A DNA stretch of 61,679 nt, counting the filler, from Asterionella formosa (lineage: Eukaryota): assembly GCA_002256025.1 (NCBI GenBank). It is 16 parts of 16 records of this genome, joined end to end, with 100 filler letters (N's around TTAATTAATTAA, not from the genome) between each part and the next. Parts side by side here need not be neighbours in the genome. Positions count along the whole stretch, not along the records: positions 23,222 to 26,985 come from NKIB01013920.1; 15 more parts are not named here. One strand, 5' to 3'. Position numbers and translations under genes: made by a program. Under the pieces are notes generated by a model that did not search any database, was not told where the DNA came from, and worked only from the letters and a program-made list of their open reading frames with translations. Numbering within the stretch: position 1 is the stretch's first letter; every line of letters begins with the position of its first letter. Positions 17,112 through 52,008 of the stretch are shown here, piece after piece.

Positions 17112-19255
17112 TCAGAATACTTTTTCAAGACGATGTAACCTTCTGATGTGTTGAGAACTAATGATTGCTTCAGCTGCTGCAGAAAATTGATACAGGCTCC
17201 CCATATCCTTCCATTGATCGACCTTCATGTNNNNNNNNNNNNNNNNNNNNNNNNNNNNNNNNNNNNNNNNNNNNNNNNNNNNNNNNNNNNNNNNNNNNNN
17301 NNNNNNNNNNNNNNNNNNNNNNNNNNNNNNNNNNNNNNNNNNNNNNNNNNNNNNNNNNNNNNNNNNNNNNNNNNNNNNNNNNNNNNNNNNNNNNNNNNNN
17401 NNNNNNNNNNNNNNNNNNNNNNNNNNNNNNNNNNNNNNNNNNNNNNNNNNNNNNNNNNNNNNNNNNNNNNNNNNNNNNNNNNNNNNNNNNNNNNNNNNNN
17501 NNNNNNNNNNNNNNNNNNNNNNNNNNNNNNNNNNNNNNNNNNNNNNNNNNNNNNNNNNNNNNNNNNNNNNNNNNNNNNNNNNNNNNNNNNNNNNNNNNNN
17601 NNNNNNNNNNNNNNNNNNNNNNNNNNNNNNNNNNNNNNNNNNNNNNNNNNNNNNNNNNNNNNNNNNNNNNNNNNNNNNNNNNNNNNNNNNNNNNNNNNNN
17701 NNNNNNNNNNNNNNNNNNNNNNNNNNNNNNNNNNNNNNNNNNNNNNNNNNNNNNNNNNNNNNNNNNNNNNNNNNNNNNNNNNNNNNNNNNNNNNNNNNNN
17801 NNNNNNNNNNNNNNNNNNNNNNNNNNNNNNNNNNNNNNNNNNNNNNNNNNNNNNNNNNNNNNNNNNNNNNNNNNNNNNNNNNNNNNNNNNNNNNNNNNNN
17901 NNNNNNNNNNNNNNNNNNNNNNNNNNNNNNNNNNNNNNNNNNNNNNNNATAACCGCGTAGGCGATGCCAGAGACCAAGATAAAGTCGTACACAGTGAAGT
18001 GCTTCGCGGCACCCTTACTCTGAGCTCGATATACCTCAATCACTGGAAGTAAACATGCAACTGTACTCCATTCCTGAAAGTGGAGGCCCAACTTTAATTG
18101 AGCGAATGTAATGCTGTGCAAGAGAACCTGGTTCTTCGCATTCTTTGCATCTTCGGTGAATGCAACTTGATCCATGATTGTTCCTGTCAAAATCATTGGA
18201 AATGTGGAGCGACCCTGAAAATTCAAGACTGCTTGGTGAGTTGGGGCAAGCATTGTTTTAATGCCATCCTGCTTAAATTCAAAGCATAGCTCTTCAATCG
18301 CTAGTATTTCGTCATCCATTTGATCCAGTGGAGTGCCAATACTGCCAAGAACCATAATGCGATTGTAAGCTGCAAGAAGACCAGTTCCGATCTCACTTGT
18401 GGCAAGTCCATTGGTGTAAGCCCGATACAAAGGGGCGACAAGAGTGTCGAGAGGCATTTTCCAATGATTTGTATAACAGCACACAACTAATATTGTGCGG
18501 GCCCCTACTTCCTGTGATTTCGTTGTTTCCAATAGGTGCATTGCCAGCCTACCAAAAGCAAACCCATCGTCATATCTCCCAACGAATGTTTTTATCATTC
18601 CGAAGGTGCCCACAGCTTGTGTGGACATCGCAGACAAACCGAAACGTAACGTGAAGCGCATCATCTCCAGAGAGACTAAGATGAATTCTCTCCCTTTCTC
18701 CAAGAAAAAGGCGCTGTAAGCCAAAATGCCCATAATTTTCATGCAAGCCAGCTTATCTTCGTCTTTCATTTCTGGTAATTTCAGAATGTCACTAATGTCT
18801 TTCGGTACTAGTGATGATGCGCGCACTAGACTTGTGATGATATGTATTGTTGATGGTTTCTTCGGAAACGAAATTTTGAATTGCAACAGAAACTTAAAGC
18901 CGAGATCCAATGCGTCCAATAGCCAACCTCGTGCTCTAAGAGACTCAATTTTTGCGTAGTATGCACGAAGGCAATCCCGACGCGAAACAGAAAAAGCCAG
19001 TACTTCATCAAATAACTCATTGCACATCAAGAAATCGCCTGAACAATATTCCATCTCTGCCCCCAAGCTCGCGAGTTCAAGTGCTAGATTGTAATACTTG
19101 CGCCACCTACATTCTTTCTCTAGCAATCCACGTGCTTTTCTCAGATATTGCGAGGCTGGAAAGTACGCAGACCTGGCTTTTGCTAATTTTGCTACCTTCA
19201 AATTCAATTTTGCCAACTCGACCTTCTGCCTTTCATCGGTCACAAAATTAAGTCC
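17112..19255 (-). CDS. C-terminal helical (TPR-like) region of a COG3899-type predicted ATPase; partial, spans an N gap
   Basis: ~435 aa open from the contig edge: ELAKLNLKVAKLAKARSAYFPASQYL..W.KYYNLALEL..AEMEYCSGDF..; after the gap a plausible end MKVDQW..EKVF* (TGA 17112-17114), whose linkage is inferred. Confidence 0.75.
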
Positions 19256-19974
19256 TNNNNNNNNNNNNNNNNNNNNNNNNNNNNNNNNNNNNNNNNNNNN
19301 TTAATTAATTAANNNNNNNNNNNNNNNNNNNNNNNNNNNNNNNNNNNNNNNNNNNNGAGCTGGGGGTTCAAATGCAGCAACCTGAAGGATACATATTGTC
19401 TACGATGAGAAAATATTGTCTACGATGAGAAAAGGCAGCATGCTATTGTTCTGACTGGTGTGATACTTCCATTGTAAGTGCGTGTACGGTGGTACAACAC
19501 ATAAACCGGTATACCTAAGATCTATGATAGGTGCAGGTTTTTGAGGGGAACCTTGGCACGTTGTAATACTTCTCTGCGAATCTGCATAAAACAACATATT
19601 TTTAATGAATAATATTTTTTACTTTTTTTTTATGTATATGCTTGACTTACAGGTACATTTTAGCCCTTTCATCACTCCCCCTACCTTTAGTCCAATCGTA
19701 TCTGTCCCACCATCGCAAACAATGTAATCCCAATCACAGACATGGTATTCAGAATCATTTCCATTATTTGGTAAACATGATATACTTGAAAAGTCTTGAA
19801 AGAAGATCACCAGTTGCATAATTAAAAATTGCCAAGGCACAGAATTGCAACAAAGTATAGTCTCTGACACTTTTATATAGTTTCGACTGCTCCATCCATC
19901 ATGTCAGTGCTTTTTGTTGTGAGGAGCCAGGAGTTGAAAGTGCTGTTCCATTATCAAATGATTGTTAAACCAAG

Positions 19975-20099
19975 AAATGAAACATTGGTGATGATGTAGG
20001 AGATGGGTCTGGCCGTTTGAGCTGCCATATGACAAATAGCAATGATGGCACCTAGTCTAAGATGCCAATCACCACAAATGTTGCCAAGACTCACTCTTT
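19975..20099 (-). mobile_element. Decayed BED zinc finger, likely hAT transposase N-terminus
   Basis: KSESWQHLW*LAS*TRCHHCYLSYGSSNGQTHLLHHHQC fits the BED pattern KS..W.HF...C..C..LSY....G.S.L..H...C. Confidence 0.6.
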
Positions 20100-21436
20100 A
20101 CCATTGACGCTGGCAATAGGCTTTTTCAATTGTTTCTTGGTCAAAAGTAGAGGCACTGGCAATTTCAGGATCATCGACAAGAGCACACAGCATTGAATAG
20201 TATTAGTGTTGCAGGTTCGCTCCAGCTGGCCATGTTCATCGTGAACCTTGTTGGTGCTAGCGGGAGCACTGATCATTGCAGAAAAATTAAAGCAACTTGT
20301 TTGATGTTACAGAGAATCTGGTCCTAGCTAGCTACCGGTAGCGCTACTATTAGCTACGTGTCAGGCTACATAGTACAGTAGGAGTGAGAGAGGAAATTGC
20401 GGAGACAAAACCGATACATACAGGCATTTCCTCTTATACCGGTATTCTAGACGCTACACTCTACACTATATACTCTCACCGGTATATCTGTTATTACATC
20501 AAATCTGATGAAATCCATTTTACCGTATGTAAAATTTGTTGGATCGACGTGATGTGATTGATGTTATGTAGAGATGCATCTGATGCTAACGGTAGTACAG
20601 TACGATACCCAGTACCAGGGGACCACAGTTTGAACCAGCTCATTACAAAGCGTCAAGACCACTCTATTTGGACCAGCATATACAGAATCGTGCATGCCTA
20701 TTGAGACGGGCAGGCGCAGGTCCGAACACTTGTCTTTGCATTGTTCCCTCATGTGCTTCCACCTGGAATCTTTTTTTAACGTAGAAAATATACCAATGAC
20801 GTAGATGATGACGTGTTTTCAGCACCTTTTATCAGATGTAAAAATGATACCAATATGCATACGGTACTATGTGAAGATATTAGCAATCATTCTGGCTGAG
20901 GAACCCCCAATGTGGAGCGACTTTTAATGTCCACTTCCACCTTCTAAAGATAATTCCATACCGGTACCGATCGAGATCTTTCCAATATACCTCATACCGC
21001 AACGACAGGTATTGTACTGATGTATCTGAATAGCTCGTACCACCTAATTAATTGCTCAAGCTGTCCTCATCAGTCATGCAACTATTTTACACAAGATTCA
21101 TCCTTTACTCTACTACATGTATATGAGTTTATGCACAGATGGTAGCTAATTTATACACTTTTTATACATAAATTCAATTATCCCAAAAGCCCTTTCATCA
21201 CCACTACGGCATATTACTTAAAATGTGTGTATCATATAATGCATTCATACAGATATTCATACATAACTACATAGATGATGAACAAAAGTTCCGGTATGAC
21301 TGAATGAATTTTTGGACCTTGCATGTAGAATTGAACGACATGAGATGGAAGCGAAAGAATTACAAACACATCCACAAAAAAGAAAAAGGCGTATTTAACA
21401 CACGTGCGAGAGATTAAACAACGAGAACAATCAAAC

Positions 21437-22585: not shown

Positions 22586-23461
22586 TCATTATGGTTATAT
22601 TTAGGAGGATCAACTAGTATTTATTATTCTAATTACGGAACTGTTATGTTTTGATTATCAATAAGTAGGGTATGTTTTTGTTAAACTGTTTGTTGAAATT
22701 TACGTTTACACTCTTCTTTATGGATGTTTCCCTGATTATGATACATACATTCTGAGCGAGGCTTGTTTTGTAAACTCGTTCATTTTGCATACAGAAGGAT
22801 CCATCAACATGGACATGGAGATGGAGATGAATAGCACACTGTCACCATCTGGGGGTAGCCGGAATGAAACAAGTCCATATATAAAATGTATTCGCAACAG
22901 CAACAAATCAGACATGATTCCTCGGAGAAAGTGATGAGTGAGTACCAGGTACCTGTCGTATTCCAGTCGTCTTGGTCTACAGTATTAGGGGTTTCTTATA
23001 TATAGAGGAGGATCAGAACAGCTGGATATGTTCCGATCCTGAGAATTTGAGAAAAAGAAATACGTATGTTTGCATACCAAGTCAATTCAGTGATTACGTA
23101 TGCACTATTTACGTATGGAATNNNNNNNNNNNNNNNNNNNNNNNNNNNNNNNNNNNNNNNNNNNNTTAATTAATTAANNNNNNNNNNNNNNNNNNNNNNN
23201 NNNNNNNNNNNNNNNNNNNNNACACAGAATCCTGGTAGTTTGTCCGGTAGATTGAACTGATGGAGGACATACAGAAACCCTGTTTCTGTGTGTCCTCCAA
23301 TGTTTTCGGTGTGGCCAGACAAGAATCAAATAGAACGTTCGATTTTAGGTTAAGACTAACATGTCTAGTAGTAGAAATGTTGTGTTCCTGCTTGATAATG
23401 TATATATGTATGTAGTATAGTTGCTACATTAAGCAGAGCAGGGAACTATCAATCATTTCAT

Positions 23462-23695
23462 GGGCCATACCTTATTTGCGATGGTGGATATCTTTGCTAG
23501 CCATGTCTTGTATATCCTTAAAAAAACAGGACTTGATGGCAGTCAGACAATGAAGTGGTCAGCTATGCTTGAGTCTGTTTGCAAAGACATTGAAGGAGTC
23601 TTTGGTATTCTGAAAAAACGGTTTGCATTCCTAAAAGTTTTCAACCACATGCATCGTCATCAGAAGCATATTGACAATGCATTTGTCACTTGTTG
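23462..23695 (+). mobile_element. PIF/Harbinger (DDE_Tnp_4-like) transposase C-terminal remnant
   Basis: YLICDGGYLC*PCLVYP then frameshift to KTG...KWSAMLESVCKDIEGVFGILKKRF...IDNAFVTCC. Confidence 0.85.
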
Positions 23696-25178
23696 TAAGT
23701 TCTTATCTTCACGCTTTCGAGCTGCTTGAGACAGTGGATTGTTGCTTGCATCGCCGAGCACCTCTATTACATTAGGTGTCAACTGTGGGTCCCTGCGAAA
23801 AATTATAACTGTCAATGTAAGATAACATGGGCTCTTCTTGTATTTCCAGAACTGGTGTTGAAGCTCGTTTTCGATTTCCTGAGGGGTGAGGCTCAACTTG
23901 CTGTTCAAGGCCAATTTCTTTCTGAACTCTTTAATCAGCATGTCATGACATGTGTAGTGGAAGCGCGCCCTTGCCACTCTTCATAGATACAAAATTTACT
24001 GGCAACAAAGCGATAACAGCACACCGGAAAATCCAATGATGACATTGACAATGTGCTATTCTCGTCTTCAATCATACATCTAGCTACAACGCCGATTACT
24101 GGTACAGCCGTCATAAAAAAACCCTAGTCAAATATGATCACCCAAATTAATTATTTGGGTGGCCCAATATGACGAATTTAGCTACATACATAATTTAAGG
24201 GTATGACATCACAAAAAAATATAATGCATCATACAATATATATGGACGGAGTGAACTAAAATAGTTTTGACAACTTCCATTATTATTTTAGAAACCCACA
24301 TAATTTTTGGGGCCAACTGACAATATTTTCTGGTGACATGAAGAAAAATTTGTTCAGTAATAATCTCTATAATACAGTACTTTTCTCTACAATTCACAAC
24401 ATTTCCGTTCACAAATATTCTTCACTCTGACTACCATTAATTCTGTTAGTTTGCTCCCATTTTATCTTTACTTTGATCACATTAATACCTCAAGGTTAAA
24501 CAAATATATATGCCAGTCAAACAAATAATTATGTGTAACCAATTCACTTTTTCAATTTCATTCTACAATCGCAAAATCAATCAAATTAATCGCTTCGCTA
24601 TTTAGTTTATATTGATACTTTCTATAGAACGTGATTCTCAAACCAATATGACAAGCAATGGATGTTCATTCTTGTAGCTGGATGCTGTAACTAATCGCAA
24701 GATTGCTTGGCTACTCATAGTACTTGCAGGAATCCATGTTACTACTACCGGTAGATCAATTCATAGCAAATGAGCCGGCTGCTCATTCTCATTGCTCGGA
24801 TTGATTTTTTTTGTAGAAAGAGGGAAACATTTGCAGAGTGAGTTGATGAGAAAAAAAGTTACGAAGCCATGATTTCGGTTCTGCTGTGCTCCTTACCATG
24901 TTCCCCAATGGCCAACCCAGCCCTGATCATATGATTGTTTGCGATCAGTGAACAACAATCGCAGAGTGAGTTCATGAACAAACAATCGTTACAAAGGCAT
25001 CATTTTCGTTGTGCTTAGCTACCATGCCGCAGCCTGATTCCCAAAAAATCTCTCGCTCAACAGATTGATTGTCTGTAGACAAAGAACAGCGTTTGCAGAG
25101 TAAGTTTGTGATCAACAAGCAAGTAAGAAGCACACGATGTAGCCCTTTTTATAATTCATTACAAATAGCAATTCATGC

Positions 25179-25501
25179 GCTAACAATTCCGAACAAAGAT
25201 GAAGGAGAATAGGAGAGGAGATCCGCCCACAACAAGCAACAGCAAACAGTATCAAGCAACAAAAGGCAAGAAAACATTGCACTTGCTTACCATCATGTAT
25301 ATAATTGTCCCCTTTGCACCAGAGGAATTGTTTCAACAATGCGACAAACAAATGATTGATAGTCTGCCTGACACAGAGCACGACACATTTCATTCTTCCC
25401 AAGGGTCAACCCTGCCCTGCCAAAAACAGTTTGTTTGCTGTTGCTTGTTGTGGGCGGATCTCCTCTCCTATTCTCCTTCATCTTTGTTCGGAATTGTTAG
25501 C
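25179..25501. repeat. Perfect 70-bp inverted repeat pair around a 183-bp spacer (MITE or foldback)
   Basis: 25179-25248 is the exact reverse complement of 25432-25501; no clear TSD. Confidence 0.93.
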
Positions 25502-25570
25502 TAGCAATGATTATTTTATCAAATAGAACCGAATCAAATCAAAAGAAATGTTGGTAGATACGTTTTATAT

Positions 25571-26106
25571 ACCCTAACCCTAACCCTAACCCTAACCGGT
25601 AAGGACAACACAGTGCACTTCTACATATTGATATCAAAAGACATACAACCGGTACTAACGCATTCATTCTCATACCAGTTTCCATCTATAGGATTAGTCA
25701 TACTGTGTGCTACAGTTACATGCCCAGCCCTAGAAGGGCTGGATGCTCTATACCCTAACCCTAACACTATGGTAAGTACAACACAGTGCACCTCTACATA
25801 TTGATATCAAAAGACAAACAACCGGTACTATCACATTCATTCTCATACCAGTTTCCATCTATAGGATTAGTCATACTGTGTGCTACAGTTACATGCCCAG
25901 CCCTAGAAGGGCTGGATGCTCTATAGGGATGACACCTAGAGGCGTCGTCCCTTTTCCCTAACCCGTTCTATTGATACAACACTATTCGAAAAATCAATGA
26001 ACCCCTATCTTTACATACCACCACACAGCGCACACCCTCCTGGTGTCCTTTGCGGTATTATTGCAGGCATGATCCAACGAATCTACCATCTAACCCTAAC
26101 CCTAAC
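25571..26106 (+). mobile_element. Penelope-like retroelement remnant interleaved with telomeric repeats
   Basis: (CCCTAA)4 at 25572-25595, two units with 173-bp period separated by (CCCTAA)2, CCCTAACCC at ~25956, RT thumb fragment IDTTLFEKSMNPYLYIPPHSAHPPGVLCGIIAGMIQRIYHL (25967-26092), then CTAACCCTAACCCTAA. Confidence 0.8.
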
Positions 26107-26619
26107 TCAAACTCCTTGTACCAGAACAAAAACCAGGAAGAAGCCAATGACAAACATGCCAATCAACAAAAATATACCCAGGACTTGCAACAATCGACGT
26201 TCACAATAGGCTCTTCCAATTGCTTCTTGGTCCAAAATAACAGCATCTGCAAGTTCTGGTTCATCCACAACCTCAGCAGCGAGTACTGCTGCAGATTCCG
26301 GCTGGCCTTCTGAAAATGCGCCAGGACATGCCTGTTGTTGTGGTGGTGCCACAACAGGTATAGTAACGTCTTCCGACTCTTCATGATCATTCTTTTCTGA
26401 GGATGTGGGTGCCAAATTCTTTTTCTTTTGCCTTTGTGCATTACTTCTACTAGCAATTTCGATCTTCTTTTTGAGGAACGACGATTCTTCTTCGTCACAC
26501 TGAGTTCCTTCTTGGAAAGTCGACGAAGCAGGGGACTCCTTCTCATCCAGGGTGTCACTGGGTTTCTTCTTTTTGCTTCCACCGTCATCATTCTTCTTGT
26601 TATTGTTGCTTGACGACAT
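26107..26619 (-). pseudogene. Single-pass membrane protein N-terminus, apparently truncated just after its TM helix
   Basis: Low-complexity N-terminus, PGAF and VLAAEVV motifs, RR + hydrophobic helix, as in diatom type II surface proteins; the stop TGA runs directly into GTTAGGGTTAGGGTTAG. Confidence 0.6.
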
Positions 26620-27525
26620 AGTTTGCCTTGTTGTAAACGGTCTCGAAAGCGAAGAGAAACAAAATTAATGGACGATGACATATTTATGCAATTCTCGCGA
26701 TAGATATGGCAACTTCATATACCCGTATAAATATATACTTAAATATGAACACGTCAGCCCTGTCAACGTCAGACGACGTCAGATATAAGTCACAAGAGAA
26801 CGATACTTTCTCTTGTTTTGTATGTGTAACAACCGGTGTTTTAATAAGCACTTACCGGTATAGTCTTTGTTTGTTTGATCGTTTTCATCTCTTTTATCTT
26901 TGCCATAGTTCCGCTTAGCCTCTTCACATCGAGATCTTTACAGTTCATCAGACCCATCGCCTCTGAAAGGGCGAAAAGAAGAATTNNNNNNNNNNNNNNN
27001 NNNNNNNNNNNNNNNNNNNNNNNNNNNNNTTAATTAATTAANNNNNNNNNNNNNNNNNNNNNNNNNNNNNNNNNNNNNNNNNNNNAGCATCATGGTTTGT
27101 CAAGAGCAAATGCCAGGATGATCAATTGCTGGGATTAAAAATACGGAATGACTTGTCCCCTTTCAGTGATTCAATAGCTCCTTTTCGATTTGGTGGCTGG
27201 CCAACCATCAATGTGGACAAAAGAAATCGGTAAGTTTTATCAGCCATCTTTGGATCAATCCACAACTGTTAGAAGAACTGACACATGTGTGTTGCTTCTT
27301 TCAGGATAATGGTAGACAAACAGTATTTGTAAATTACAAACAGCAGTGTTGGAGCCCATTTATTGATCATTACTTTGCTTCTCATTCAATCTTCAACTGA
27401 CACAATCTTTTACAGAAATATGCATCAGTTACTTCCTCAATTTGTGGTAAGTGAAGATAGAAGCGAAATGCATGTTGTGGTGTAAGCAAAACATGAACAG
27501 CTAACAATGAATTGCTTCTCTTTGT

Positions 27526-45888: not shown

Positions 45889-46395
45889 AGTCGGAGTAAT
45901 AAGCGAGCAACAGAACACCATATGTTCTGGCATACCTACCCGGTAGTTATCATAATATTGCTTTTATGAATTTAACTGGCGCGATAATTAGCCAGGCTGA
46001 CGAGTTACTACCGGTACCAGGTAGTACGTCTATATCTTTTATCAGCACCTTTAAGTAGCACCTACGGTTATGGTGGTACTATGTTTTTCCCTATTATTTT
46101 CTGTAGCAGCTCTGTAGAGAGGCTGTGAAGGTCAAAGCGCTGCCCCCCGCCCCCCCTCTATTACCGGAATACCGGAAAAATTTGGTACATCACCCATTAT
46201 CGTGCGTTGCAACGGCCCGCGACAGGGTGGCTGTGGTTATGGAGCAGGGGGTAGAACGCCACAACATGACGAAGTCCCAAGGATCATGAATGGGANNNNN
46301 NNNNNNNNNNNNNNNNNNNNNNNNNNNNNNNNNNNNNNNTTAATTAATTAANNNNNNNNNNNNNNNNNNNNNNNNNNNNNNNNNNNNNNNNNNNN

Positions 46396-49300
46396 GGTTT
46401 CAATGTTGGCGACATTGAAGTGAATTATATTTCGTCGGTCACCACTTCTGCGGACTTCGATCTCAAAGTCATCCAACTTGACACTACGTGTACTTTCAAC
46501 TACAATTATGACTATTCATTCCTCTCTGGAAGTGGCCAAGGAACGGCATATACCAACGACAACTCAGTCGAAGCGTCCCTCGTATTTACTCAACCCAACA
46601 GCGACGAACCTCCAAATGCGCTTGCTGTAGAAAACTGCCAAATTGATCTTCAAATTACAGACCTGGATTTCGCAGGAGGGATTGTGGCCTCCATTTTGGA
46701 TACTGCTGATAGATTAATTCGTGGATATATTGAAGGGGAAGTGCAACGGTACGCGTGCGACAAGGTTAACAACCTGGATCAATCGGCAACTACATTGTTA
46801 GGAACAATTCAATCTGTATTGGAAAAGTACTTGATAGATGTGGACCAAACAGATCCATTGCAAGCCGAGAATGAATTCAACACTACCTACAGCTCGTCCC
46901 TCGTTAACTTTCAAGATCCAAAGGGTGGCATTTCGACGATTGTGGGTGCCTTATTGTCAGAAGCTAGTAAGTTTTTAGCGACGACTTCAACCGACACCAC
47001 AACTGGCGAAACAACTTTGGGAGTAAATGAGTTGATTCGAACATATCTGCTGGATGATTCTGGCACCTTTGCTCTCAACGCTAGTGACGTTTCACTTCCA
47101 GAAAATGGAGTGCTGCTCCAATCCGATGGCAACATAACGTCCACGTTAATAGCAGTTTTGGGCATGCGAGTAAAAGGGCTGGATAGTTTCACACGAATTG
47201 ATCCGCTCGAGGACATTGGACGTTACACCCTTGCAACTTCATTTTCCTGGCAAGAACTTGCACTGGAAGTTGACATGATGGTTGAACTATCTGCGGACAA
47301 TCAAGATGGAGGAATCACGTCCAATGTAACGGAGACGGTATCTATCGGTGTAACATTCGATCAAATGGAAGTATCTGCAGCTCTTCTCCTTGCCATTTAC
47401 CATGAAGCTTTGGGTAGTCTCCAACTGGGATCTTTATTGAACATGAAAAACATCTTGCCTTGCATCTTCTCTACCTTGGCAGGAGCTAATATTTCGCAAC
47501 TCGATGTATCCGTTGGTTCGATCGGAATGCCCACGATTGTTGGTTTTAACTCGCCCGGCATGGACCGCATCTTTGCAACCTTGGTGGAGGGTCTGTGGGG
47601 AATGTATGATCAAGTCATCGCCAAGGCGCTTCCTGCCTTTTTCTCCACGACCATTCGAGAACTACTCACTTCAACCATTCAAAAGTATGTTGACAGTCCT
47701 GAAGGTTGTCCATCACCAGTGGTGCCACCTAATTTCGATTTTGTTGACTTTCGAGAATTGTTTCTCAACGAATCTGAAGCGATTTCGTTTGGAGCAAATG
47801 GTTCATCGCCATTTGGTGATCTGGGTGTTTTGATCCGAAAACTCATTGACACGGAAGTCATCGCGCCCGATTCGAAAACAGGACTGCCCAAAATCAACAA
47901 AGCCGTGGTGGACCCATTGACCGAGGATCAATCTAACAAAACTGGCACTCTGTTGCTACCTCGCGATTTGCTCAATGTTAATTCCGCATTTTCAATTGAG
48001 AAGTATGATGCAAGGATTCGATTCACGGTTTCCGAGGTCAAGGTCGAAAATCTCAATACCATGCGTGCTCCCTTGCGTCTACTTGATCCAGTATCAGATG
48101 AGGCCAACACACTTGATAATCAAATCACGTTTAGCAATGATTCATTGCCGCTGAGTGTGGGAGCGCGTGTAATGTTGGAAATCATCGGAGACGGTGATCT
48201 GAATATGTACAATGAGTTCACTGTGCGCGTGGATCTGACTGGTGCTAGTATCGCATTGAGTGCACTACTAAAATTGGCTTCGAAACCCTTTCTTCAGTTC
48301 CCACTTCGAGATATGTTCAATCTCAATTGTTGGACTGCCGCCATTCAAGCCCCCGAACTGACTTCTCAGGGACTTCGAGTCGACCGCTCAGCGATTACGG
48401 CAGCACTCCTGGGATTGAATGTTGATCTGGAAAAACTCGCCCTTGATATTGAGTGTGTAAACTGCTCTAGCCCTCTCCTGTACAATTTGTCATCATCATT
48501 TAGCGCCCCAGGGGCAGAAGAAGAAGCAACAAGAAGTGCCAACCATGTTCTTGACTATTTCATCACTTTGGTGGAAGGCGAATACTTCCAAAGTAAGATC
48601 GACCAACTTCTCAACGATGCCCCGAGGAAATGTCCGCATAACTCAGCGTTCATGAGCGATCCAGTTTCATATTCGTATGAGCCCTTGACTGCCAGTCTCC
48701 CAGATGACTCCACAGCTTTTGTGTTAACATTGGCCCTTACCACTTTTGGTATTATTATCGCCTTCGTCCTCGAAAGGTACATTGTGAAATGTATTGTGTA
48801 TCGAAGGAATATGAAGTGGCTGCGATCATTGCCAAACGAAAAGATCTATCGCATTTATCGCAATCAACGTGATCAGAAAAATATTCAAGCCAAATTAAAT
48901 GAAACGACTATGTCAATGTTTTCAAGTGCAGAGGTCCCAGTACTCGCCCGGTGGCTGCTTCCTACCGTGATTATTGGAAATGTTGCTTTCTTTCTCAGTG
49001 GTCACTTGAGCCTTGGAGGCACCATTCTAATAAATTTCAACCTGGCTGGTCAAGATATCACAATTAACGACTTCTACTCTTTTTCGATTGCCCAGTCGAC
49101 TATTGAACTTTGGAATGCAGGAGGGAAGGCATTGGCCGTGCTCATTGTACTATTCAGTGGAATTTGGCCGTACACAAGGCTGTTCCTAAATTTTCTGTGC
49201 TGGTTCTTACCCCCTCGACTCCTTTCGGTGTCAACTCGAGGCTCCATAATTCTTTGGCTTGATGCATTGGCAAAATGGAGCACAATCGATATCTTCGTTT

Positions 49301-50149
49301 TGGTTATTACCTTGGTTGCTTTCCGCATAACCGTCTCAAGTCCCAAGATGGCGTTCTTACCAACTGATTTGTACTCCTTGGACCTGCTAGTTGTTCCGGT
49401 TTGGGGTTTATATGCAAATATCATCGCTCAGAACCTATCTCAAATCACATCACATTATCTAATTTTCTACCATCGCAAAATAGTTTGCAAAGGATTAGAA
49501 AAGGGGGACAGCCAAGTAAAAATTACGGGCCCTGATGCAAGCGACGTGGAAAGCGCGGCGATCGATTCAGGAACAAATATTCAGTCATCGTCGACCACGG
49601 ACGCTCTTAAGGAGAACTTGAAAGATCACGGATATTCTCGACCACACCGTGGGGATAAAGACGTCATCTACGTTCGCCGTGGTGTCAGCACCGCTACACT
49701 TGTGACGGGAGCCCTCCTTGTGACGTTGATCATTGTGGGATGCTGTCTTCCTAGCTTTTCTTTCGATATGCTCGGTGTCCTTGGACTTGCCGTTGAGTCG
49801 GGACAAAATTTCCAACAGGCCCTTACTGAATATTCAGTTTTCTCCATCTTCAATTTATTGATCGACGAAGCTGCTTTTCTGGGAACCACAAAGGACTGGA
49901 TTGGGTTGGTGTCTATTGCCTTGGTATTTGTTTTGACTGTGTTGGTTGTTCCCATTTTTCAAACTCTCGTACTTCTGTACCATTGGTGGGTCCCCATGAC
50001 ACGAGAACGCCACCTGCGTTTTGTCACATTGACTGAGATCTGTCAAGCATGGCAATACATTGAAGTGTTTGTTATTGCTGTCATGGTGTCGGCTTGGCAA
50101 TTGGGATCCATTAGTGCGTTTCTCATCGAAAGCTATTGTGACTCGCTGA
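46396..50149 (+). CDS. Large membrane protein with long beta-rich N-region and two PqiA-like domains; partial at both ends
   Basis: Whole contig is one open frame (~1250 aa); SIAQSTIELWNAGGKALAVLIVLFSGIWPYTRL...LDALAKWSTIDIFV and second SVFSI...VLVVPIFQ...AWQYIEVFV. Confidence 0.85.
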
Positions 50150-50688
50150 NNNNNNNNNNNNNNNNNNNNNNNNNNNNNNNNNNNNNNNNNNNNTTAATTA
50201 ATTAANNNNNNNNNNNNNNNNNNNNNNNNNNNNNNNNNNNNNNNNNNNNGAGTTTCCGTCAACTCCCAGGCACCACCCACCGGTATTTTTCCAATATCTG
50301 CGCCAGGGTACCTGTTGAACCGATGCCAGTGTATGTCGGTACTGGATAAAAGGTATAATAGCTCGTAATTTCTCAAGATGTCCTCATCAGCCATGCAACG
50401 TTTTCATACGAGATCCATTCATATATATTTGACATACGATACATGTTACTAACAATATTGTTCCTTATATGAATACACAAAAGCCCTTTCATCACTAAAT
50501 TTCGTCTACATTTTATAGTGCATACAAACATAGATGATGGACCAAAGTTCCTGCATGGAGATGACTGAATGAATTTGGAGCTGACATGTAGAATTCAACA
50601 ACTCAAGAATTATTACATAACACGACCACAAAGAAAAAGGCGTTTTATATGATACATGTACGTTTAAATCAACGAAAACAAATCAAAA

Positions 50689-51717
50689 ATGTCACTCAAT
50701 CGCAACGTCCCTTCAATCGTGAATGAGCATGGCGTACAAGCAGAGCACATTAGGAATGGATTCTGTCCTAATCATCCAGACATTCAGCTTTGCAAAAAGA
50801 ATTGGTTTGGATTTTGGTAGACTGTGCGAGAGGGCTGCCCTAGATGCGATCGTAGGAATACCCAAGGGCCTACGGCTCCAACGACTCCAATGCCTCAGCA
50901 GTCTCCTTCTTTGCCAGCAACACAATCTCAGTCTACAACCCAAATTCCAACCACTTCAATTTCGGCTCCGATTGATTTGATTCTGTCTGCGATGAAGGAT
51001 CATTCATCCAATGCTGAAATTCAAGAAGAAAGTCTCATGGACCTTTCGAACTTGGCTGCCAATCGTGACAACAACAGGATGACGATTGCTGAAGCAGGAG
51101 GTATCATTCTGTCTGCGATGAATAATCATTCCACGAATGCTGACATACAAGAATATTGTTGTAGAGCGCTTTTGAAATTTGTTGAGAATGACAACAACGA
51201 GGTCACGATTGCGGAACAAGAAGGTATCACTACCATTCTGTCTGCGATGAAAAGGCATTCATCCAATGCTAATGTGCAAGAATCTGGTTGTGCAGCCCTT
51301 TGTATATTGGCTGACAATAATGAAAACAACAAGTTGAGGATTGCTGCAGCAGGAGGTATCGTTATGATTCTGTCTGCAATGAAGAATCATTTATTCAATG
51401 CTAATGTGCAAGAGTATGGTTGTGCAGCACTTTGGAACTTGACTGAGAATGAAGACAATAAGGTGACGATTGCCGAAACAGGAGGTATCACCACAATTCA
51501 GTCTGCTATGAAGACTTATTACTTCAATGCGAATGTGCAATACTATGGTTGTGCAGCACTTGGCACCTTGGCTGTGAATAATCTCAGCAACAAGGAGGTG
51601 ATTGCCCATGCTGATGTAAAAGTCGCAATTGATTCTGCTTTGCGAAATCACTCAGCCAATGCTGGTGTGAAAGCAAAAGCTGAAAGAGCACTTCAAATAT
51701 TGAACCATGAGAATTGA
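50689..51717 (+). pseudogene. ARM-repeat paralog (5 repeats + cap) with one in-frame TAG at 50818-50820
   Basis: ATG 50689 reads GFCPNHPDIQLCKKNWFGFW*TVREGCPRC then continues in frame into the ARM array; 5' and 3' flanks homologous to the 21437 gene. Confidence 0.85.
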
Positions 51718-51869: not shown

Positions 51870-52008
51870 TAGGGTCAGTAGAATCAGGGGATGCCGCCTT
51901 CTGGGCGTCATCCCTAAGTAGCACCTGGCCCTTCTAGGGCTGGGTATGTACATGTAGCAGATGGTACCACTAATCCTATGGTAGTACAGTTGTAATGGTA
52001 TAGGAATC
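51870..52008 (-). mobile_element. Diverged solo copy of the twin-hairpin unit found at 25845-25964
   Basis: GGGATGCCGCC-TTCTG-GGCGTCATCCC and CCTGGCCC-TTCTA-GGGCTGGG, then TGTAGCA..ACTAATCCTAT, matching the reverse complement of the contig-7 unit. Confidence 0.8.

Follow-up and report, generated by a model that had tools for sequence, protein, structure and literature searches.

Telomeric repeats and Penelope-like reverse transcriptase sequence at the end of a truncated gene of the alga Asterionella formosa: a likely fossil of break repair

The locus described here lies in a stretch of 61,679 nt of DNA from the freshwater alga Asterionella formosa, made of 16 joined parts of assembly GCA_002256025.1 and hereafter called the window, within the part at 23,222-26,985, which comes from NKIB01013920.1. 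On the minus strand, a gene for a putative membrane protein (26107-26619) stops shortly after the codons of its only membrane helix and runs directly into a chain, located at 25571-26115, in which short telomeric repeats alternate with a piece of a reverse transcriptase (RT) gene and with two copies of a short non-coding unit.

Read on the plus strand, the chain consists of a tract of telomeric repeats, unit copy 1, a tract, unit copy 2, a tract, the RT piece and a last tract, followed by the minus-strand gene. The four tracts are of the CCCTAA type, have the same orientation, border the RT piece and each of the units on both sides, and are confined, within the window, to 25571-26115. The outermost one, (CCCTAA)4.5, occupies 25571-25597 and has an unrelated, repeat-rich sequence as its left neighbour. 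Unit copy 1 (25598-25752, plus strand), which ends in ...GCTCTATA, is separated by (CCCTAA)2 (25753-25764) from unit copy 2 (25765-25955, plus strand), the fuller form, composed of a body, a first hairpin (about 25896-25915), a second hairpin (25926-25951) and TTTT; the CACTAT at 25765-25770 may be one more, degenerate, telomeric repeat. The sequence CCCTAACCC (25956-25964) then leads to the RT piece (25961-26095, plus strand; about 125 bp), and this to the gene-side tract CTAACC CTAACC CTAACT CAAACT CC (26090-26115), of which 26090-26105 is CTAACCCTAACCCTAA. As for the concentration of these repeats, the 12-mer TTAGGGTTAGGG occurs five times in the window, always on the minus strand and between 25572 and 26105, against a mean of 0.00 in 100 shuffles, while the 18-mer (CCCTAA)3, with up to 3 mismatches allowed, gives six matches, all on the plus strand at 25572-26111 (0.03 expected). 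Moreover, nine of the 15 plus-strand CCCTAA hexamers of the window fall inside 25572-26105, a region that holds none of the four plus-strand TTAGGG hexamers.

Repeat searches, open reading frame (ORF) analysis and alignments found in place all the elements named in a preliminary description of this DNA, that is the tracts, the units, the RT piece and the gene, and the sense of the RT piece does lie on the C-rich (plus) strand, as proposed there. Two statements had to be amended. The two structured units are nearly identical as described (150 of 155 positions between 25598-25752 and 25771-25925, with a period of 173), but unit 2 has an additional 3' hairpin and T run that unit 1 does not carry. 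The telomeric tract on the gene side is present, but it is longer than described, being degenerate up to 26115, and it holds the stop codon of the gene.

The gene is a 170-aa ORF, with a Lys/Ser-rich N-terminal region and a single C-terminal hydrophobic helix, LLQVLGIFLLIGMFVIGFFLVFVLV, after which come QGV and the stop TGA (26107-26109); the C-terminus thus reads ...FVLVQGV, with the stop placed directly against the repeats. Four relatives of similar length were found (P0001-P0004). P0001 (171 aa, 91% identity) and P0002 (216 aa, with another N-terminal half and the same C-terminal half) end at the identical ...LVQGV, P0003 ends 12 residues earlier, and P0004 diverges ahead of the helix. A search among longer proteins led to P0168, of 619 aa and with four leucine-rich repeat (LRR) Pfam families, which is 55% identical over gene residues 1-82 (P0168 1-77) and 32% identical over residues 62-150. 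The two have in common the N-terminus MSSSNNNKKN... and the stretch that leads to the membrane helix, past which P0168 runs for more than 300 aa, with a Ser/Pro-rich linker and then the leucine-rich repeats. The same continuation is found 6 kb away in the window, in a pseudogene piece of the family (19697-20181, minus strand; tblastn match to P0168 residues 255-424) which carries in-frame stops and a frame shift and goes on past the helix into the ectodomain, with the same linker and the motif LLQF.ALA.FNYATGD. This piece has neither the N-terminal part nor the LRR part.

In the alignment, the helices of the gene and of the pseudogene are equally long up to a shared Gln, after which the relatives have (F/L)K(K/R)P... 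and the truncated gene has Gly-Val-stop. A metagenome scan with the alignment of the gene returned three loci (L001-L003), all resembling the pseudogene type of the window, two of which (L001 and L003) also run on beyond the helix; none of the three has TTAGGG repeats or the unit, and they are not the DNA coding for P0001-P0003. All three (L001 783-1025, L002 628-870 and L003 35-271) show an in-frame stop at one and the same codon (NDDG*GKKK), where P0004 has Gln, and this common stop may reflect a shared pseudogene or allele. The gene is therefore best described as a predicted member of a type-II membrane LRR family whose region after the helix is missing, though its N-terminal region and helix match the P0168 family. 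A tblastn search with P0168 found no remainder of the gene left of 25571 (its other rows, with E values of 6.7-8.9, lie elsewhere in the window), and the distal part is therefore gone from the neighbourhood. The truncation claimed in the preliminary description is thus supported by the comparison with the full-length LRR relative and the pseudogene piece, relative to which the gene is cut.

The last two codons (Gly and Val) and the stop of the ORF lie within the 26090-26115 tract. In fact, the last nine bases of the ORF and two more are in phase with the adjoining perfect repeats: compared in phase, the hexamers CTAACC, CTAACC, CTAACT and CAAACT have 0, 0, 1 and 2 mismatches, whereas beyond the tract the mismatches are 5 or 4, and the chance of finding at most 3 mismatches in 12 in-phase bases is P = 3.8e-4. 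The Gln codon 26116-26118 is therefore the last part that derives from the gene, and the stop itself is provided by degenerate telomere repeats. Just past the last native codon, the plus-strand 7-mer CTCAAAC (26108-26114) reads as the reverse complement of the pseudogene at the corresponding position (in the 19990s; sense CAG CTC AAA C), a correspondence that is probably due to chance.

The reality of the junction was checked on Logan contigs from four runs placed on 25300-26900, among which X3 is poly(A) RNA, X4 is RNA from another study and X1, from the same sample as X3, is probably DNA. A contig of X3 covers 25916-26594 with 0 differences and spans the gene, the repeats, the RT piece, CCCTAACCC and hairpin 2; a contig of X4 covers 25916-26236 (3 differences, one extra CTAACC behind 26089); a contig of X1, at 26043-26308, bridges the passage from the gene through the repeats to the RT piece. 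Since this junction is bridged by contigs of two RNA studies and of one probable DNA run, it is not a misassembly, the possibility against which the preliminary description had asked to be checked. The shortened gene is transcribed with the chain as its 3' tail. Both RNA contigs stop at 25916, the edge of a repeat, and are uninformative on where the transcript ends. Furthermore, the bridging contigs of X1 and X4 show A>C at 26172, which, with the codon read by eye, would correspond to the Phe-to-Val change of P0001 and P0002. As variant copies share the junction, the event predates their divergence. By the same token, because the letters of P0001 and P0002 stand on contigs that bridge the junction, these proteins are not independent witnesses of a natural end: homologs that stop at the same site do exist, as had been considered beforehand, and they are copies of the same truncated end.

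The origin of the RT piece was traced by an exhaustive phmmer search with the plus-strand translation of 25940-26095, in which 627 proteins passed E<=1e-3 and 10 of these also passed E<=1e-10. The best match (P0005) has 169 aa and 87% identity, and many of the others are 620-700 aa long, with the matching part near residues 450-530. The profile of an alignment of 23 long relatives (A3, 641 positions) matches the piece at positions 451-500 with an E value of 1.1e-22 (aligned span 25961-26110), and among all six-frame ORFs of the window this is its sole match with E <1. Its place in the profile shows that the piece comes from inside the ORF, has been cut on both sides and belongs to the thumb / helix-turn-helix region. 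Both cuts share bases with the telomeric repeats. On the right, the overlap is CTAACC, which in the profile alignment codes for Leu-Thr, where the family consensus is l-t and P0005 has Ile-Thr; on the left, it is ACCC, within a Thr-Arg-Ser common to P0005. A candidate degraded RT element to the left of the chain (24486-24602 and 25213-25356, plus strand) was rejected for its unconvincing alignments, found among eight rows of the A3 profile with E values of 2.2-9.9.

Since the fragment of the window covers the thumb only, the features of the RT core are read from its family. D142-K143-N144, the DKN motif, which lies outside the fragment, is invariant in 23/23 sequences of A3, as are R391, D394 and D395 of RYIDD, and other RT-like positions are invariant as well. 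In a precomputed annotation that uses a newer Pfam than the local copy, PF28514 is present on 120/120 and PF26215 on 115/120 of the listed relatives; a GIY-YIG family is on 0/120 of these proteins of 597-757 aa, the source element itself being represented by 125 bp only. An AlphaFold model built on A3 (predicted local distance difference test, pLDDT, 83; predicted template modelling score, pTM, 0.79) has as its top Foldseek matches the telomerase protein TERT (6zdq_A, 1.2e-8; 3du5_A, 1.6e-8), followed by group II intron RT, LINE-1 ORF2p, diversity-generating retroelement (DGR) and retron RTs. As a lead only, a member of the family lies in the Atlas near clusters with DUF8422, HTH_animal and RVT_1, mostly from Rotifera, RVT_1 being present in 59-63% of the members in two of the nearest clusters. 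One account (PMC13159263) lists DKN, RT1-7 and Thumb as domains that typify Penelope-like elements (PLEs). The DKN and RYIDD motifs, the thumb, the TERT-like predicted fold and the lack of a listed GIY-YIG domain together fit endonuclease-less Penelope-like RTs, and the family is read as such, in agreement with the origin first proposed for the fragment.

The short unit is found far beyond this locus. The X1 depth summed over it (25840-25947) is 354,535-487,809 against 720 over the gene, a summed contig depth not being a copy number, and 3252 contigs of X1 were placed on the locus; the unit therefore belongs to a very abundant family. In the RNA of X3, depth is up to 22,052 over the unit and 453 over the gene. 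Ahead of 25765, other copies of the unit carry unrelated sequence; behind 25964 they have more CCCTAA repeats and then varied sequence (15 contigs of X1, 3 of X3 and 4 of X4). It follows from these flanks that the unit is a discrete element of about 190 nt, with a 3' end made of hairpin 2, TTTT and (CCCTAA)n, and the idea of the preliminary description that the 173-bp units were parts of a Penelope-like element was not borne out. Hairpin 2 has a loop TAGA and a stem of 11 pairs, which results from the G that most copies have at position 25934 (388,810 of 395,325 in summed X1 depth). Elsewhere in the window, downstream of an ARM-repeat ORF (50821-51714), the 3' part of the unit recurs in diverged form (51888-51979, perhaps to about 52100, minus strand; 79% in blastn over 92 nt). 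This copy keeps both hairpins, lacks a recognisable telomeric tail and is an internal insertion of the short element. The hairpin differences among the three copies are single-sided and both hairpins are kept, and the unit folds moderately better than its shuffles (z -2.1 on the plus strand and -2.9 on the minus strand). A tRNA scan and Rfam found in it no tRNA, 7SL or 5S-like head.

Tentatively, the unit could be a new short non-autonomous retroelement, devoid of a hammerhead, in which a hairpin, U4 and (CCCUAA)n mimic the telomere C-strand. Free G-rich or broken 3' ends would serve an endonuclease-less Penelope-like RT as starting points for copying it, and it would have spread to very many internal sites and to chromosome ends, besides being abundant in RNA. 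No description of a telomere-tailed short partner of endonuclease-less PLEs was found in the literature, which is weak evidence of absence, supplements being outside the search.

From the order, orientation and ends of the parts, a succession of events can be proposed, in which a break in the gene was healed by addition of telomeric repeats alternating with Penelope-like reverse transcription, the end being later joined to other DNA; to this reading we give a probability of about 0.55. The break would have occurred just after the membrane-helix codons of the type-II membrane LRR gene, and the free 3' end of the TTAGGG strand (the minus strand, which is the sense strand of the gene) would have been extended in turns. 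Telomerase-type repeats would have been added to begin with, now partly degenerate and supplying Gly-Val-stop. The CTAACC overlap at the right end of the RT piece suggests that the G-overhang then annealed, as a primer, to a CUAACC inside the RNA of an endonuclease-less Penelope-like element, of which about 125 nt would have been copied; judging from the ACCC overlap at the left end, this complementary DNA (cDNA) would have ended in ...GGGT, well suited to the addition of repeats. Next would have come one and a half repeats and then a full-length copy of the short RNA (about 190 nt), the 3' end of which consists of the hairpin, U4 and (CCCUAA)n, unit 2 having probably been joined through its own tail. 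Two repeats, a second and shortened copy of the short RNA and a further 4.5 repeats would have completed the chain, before the end was joined to other DNA.

The polarity of the chain fits the attachment of its elements to a G-rich overhang: the G-rich strand is here the minus one, whose 5'->3' direction leads away from the gene, and the elements have their sense on the C-rich strand and their 3' ends toward the gene. In the portions of the literature dealing with such attachment, endonuclease-deficient PLEs are described as priming on exposed chromosome ends or double-strand breaks, with telomeric repeats added afterwards to the truncated 5' end (PMC3846280). The RNA of the element is reported to carry reverse-complement repeats just 3' of its terminal fold, and chains with host genes between the copies are mentioned (PMC6431247; PMC8557442), the copies in these arrays being 5'-truncated by short telomeric stretches (PMC6431247).

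To the left of the chain, the flank contains three repeats of about 130 bp (24807-25118) and a perfect 70-nt inverted repeat (25179-25248 / 25432-25501) with arms 183 nt apart. The highest summed X1 depth of the stretch is reached here (1,031,620 at 25408-25461, vs 720 over the gene), and many alternative flanks are found at 25431/25432, 25437 and 25501. This part looks like a high-copy foldback element or one resembling a miniature inverted-repeat transposable element (MITE). A Pfam search on 60 ORFs of the flanks (22.4-30.7 kb) gave a single sub-threshold row, Plant_tran at 23433-23726 on the plus strand (E 0.0036, 17.4 bits against a cut-off of 22), a hint that the left flank contains a decayed DNA transposon. 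Elsewhere in the window, a single ORF of 1285 codons (46348-50202, plus strand) has a PqiA (paraquat-inducible protein A) domain near its C-terminus, a feature unusual for a eukaryotic nuclear gene. The 2038 N of the window form 30 runs of 44 N, in pairs about every 3.86 kb, and one run of 718 N (17231-17948); the regular spacing resembles masking more than assembly gaps, and one such pair (26986-27085) lies 370 bp upstream of the gene.

A number of observations weigh against healing by alternate repeat addition and reverse transcription, and several of them speak for a different course of events. As regards the enzyme, the local Pfam copy gave no relevant match for the RT piece or the truncated gene, no RVT_1 in 16/16 full-length family members (E<=0.01), and, at E<=10, no RVT_1 or other relevant match in 4/4 members; the A3 profile, searched by sequence against solved structures, found no RT (four weak unrelated rows, E 0.37-0.83); and the source element would lack an endonuclease by analogy with its relatives, with 125 bp of RT sequence at this locus. 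As regards the unit, Rfam at E<=1 over 24500-27500 returned no hammerhead and only an unrelated small nucleolar RNA match inside the gene, and the hammerhead core CTGANGA...GAAA has five matches in the window (5.9 expected), none of them in 25571-26115, two plain hairpins standing where a hammerhead is expected. Moreover, the unit is linked to an RT-coding element only by its CCCTAA tail and its place in the chain, and the 3' end of unit 1 (...CTATA, then CCCTAA) has no overlap that would explain its priming. As regards the locus as a whole, the telomeric tracts are very short, at 1.5-4.5 repeats, and the position is internal in the assembly, with non-telomeric sequence and ordinary genes on both sides in the window. 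These last two points would also be in line with a break patched in a single event by an endonuclease-independent RT jumping between CCCUAA-tailed RNAs, with perhaps a brief action of telomerase, and immediately ligated to some other broken end, while the gene's distal part was lost or translocated; the site would then never have been a telomere. With the CCCTAA tail that the unit itself has in other copies, telomerase would not be strictly needed at most junctions, and published passages name double-strand breaks as an alternative substrate (PMC3846280) and describe telomerase-linked insertion of short repeats at breaks in mammals (PMC2246262). However, the 26090-26115 tract abuts the gene on one side and an internal position of the RT on the other, with no element tail, which speaks most for repeats added de novo; no remainder of the gene follows across the chain, so this was no simple insertion; and a short-lived and a long-lived end are indistinguishable from sequence alone. 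We regard such a one-step repair as possible, if rather doubtful; the end may, instead, have gone through a period as a working telomere.

Healing in alternate steps also presupposes that the end was joined to other DNA, or internalised, as the preliminary description put it, and this would depend on the left junction at 25571, which is bridged by none of the listed Logan contigs: no contig crosses 25560-25600, and reads are cut at 25564-25605. Together with the very high-copy left flank and its perfect inverted repeat, this could mean that the chain is a present-day chromosome end, to which the sequence left of 25571 was misjoined through repeats. A live telomere would carry a long array and not 4.5 repeats; the missing bridge says little, since short k-mer contigs cannot cross such repeats; and such chains, with host DNA between their elements, are on record from the telomere regions of rotifers (PMC6431247). 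An assembly join of this kind is improbable. The end common to P0001 and P0002, taken alone, would suggest a natural protein end, and the presence of the transcript in the poly(A) RNA of two studies agrees with a short tail-anchored protein having a composite transposon insertion in its 3' untranslated region. Nevertheless, contigs with the letter of the P0001/P0002 type at 26172 bridge the same repeat junction and so represent copies of one end, the distant relatives (P0168, the pseudogene piece, L001 and L003) all go beyond the helix, and the telomere repeat runs in phase through the two final codons and the stop, which makes a naturally short protein very improbable indeed.

Telomerase has its closest relatives in the Penelope-like elements without an endonuclease, whose survival is believed to depend on attachment to exposed chromosome ends or to breaks. 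Priming of reverse transcription on a free chromosomal 3' end, able to cap a broken gene, is also a property of endonuclease-independent LINE-1 at breaks or dysfunctional telomeres and of the Drosophila elements HeT-A/TART, by which terminal deficiencies are healed. These elements belong to the non-LTR (non-long terminal repeat) class and, unlike the locus described here, Drosophila has no telomerase repeats between its elements. Among short and long interspersed nuclear elements (SINEs and LINEs), partners share a 3' stem-loop that is recognised by the RT. The unit resembles SINEs in being short (about 190 nt), non-coding and very abundant, and in having a conserved hairpin followed by a simple-repeat tail, but this tail, (CCCTAA)n, is neither poly(A) nor a LINE-type repeat.

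The likeness to the endonuclease-deficient PLEs of the Coprina/Athena type is closer. At the level of the family, the predicted features are the same, namely DKN, a YxDD core, the thumb, no listed endonuclease and a modelled fold nearest to telomerase. The orientation also corresponds to that of Athena/Terminons of bdelloid rotifers and of Coprina, with the sense on the C-rich strand and the 3' ends toward the chromosome body. Copies truncated at the 5' end, capped by short telomeric stretches and arranged in head-to-tail chains beside host genes are a further common trait, according to the pertinent sections of several reports (PMC3846280; PMC6431247; PMC8557442; PMC13159263), and Coprina is known from fungi, protists and plants, with the diatom Phaeodactylum mentioned among its hosts (PMC13159263). 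In contrast with these elements, the RT part here is a 125-bp internal piece, apparently primed inside the ORF and not at the 3' end of the element, the chain consists for the most part of a short non-coding unit, the assembly places the locus internally where a terminal location is expected, and the hammerhead described in the literature for telomere-attached PLEs is not found at this locus. Chromosome healing and interstitial telomeric sequences, as treated in part of another work (PMC2246262), share with the locus the direct joining of repeats to broken unique sequence, the degeneration of the proximal repeats and the present interstitial position; they differ in that the repeats here alternate with retroelement cDNA and in that the flanks are not the two sides of one simple break.

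That the locus is a fossil of break repair, by repeat addition alternating with telomerase-related reverse transcription, is well supported. This kind of event is known from rotifers and fungi, and to our knowledge clear sequence-resolved cases of such attachment outside these two groups are few; the algal case is unusually legible. It offers a base-by-base record of a break point in a known gene architecture, of degenerate first repeats that create a new stop, of an RT copy apparently primed in its own ORF at a 6-nt telomere look-alike, and of a repeated hand-over between repeat addition and reverse transcription. It also shows that such a cut gene can survive, give rise to variants and still be expressed, the patch serving as its 3' tail, and it draws attention to a short, abundant element that ends in telomere repeats. 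If this unit is indeed a telomere mimic copied by the RT, a telomerase-like retroelement system would be, for the alga, a general means of patching broken DNA, whether used or suffered, and the locus would show such patching caught in a still-expressed gene.

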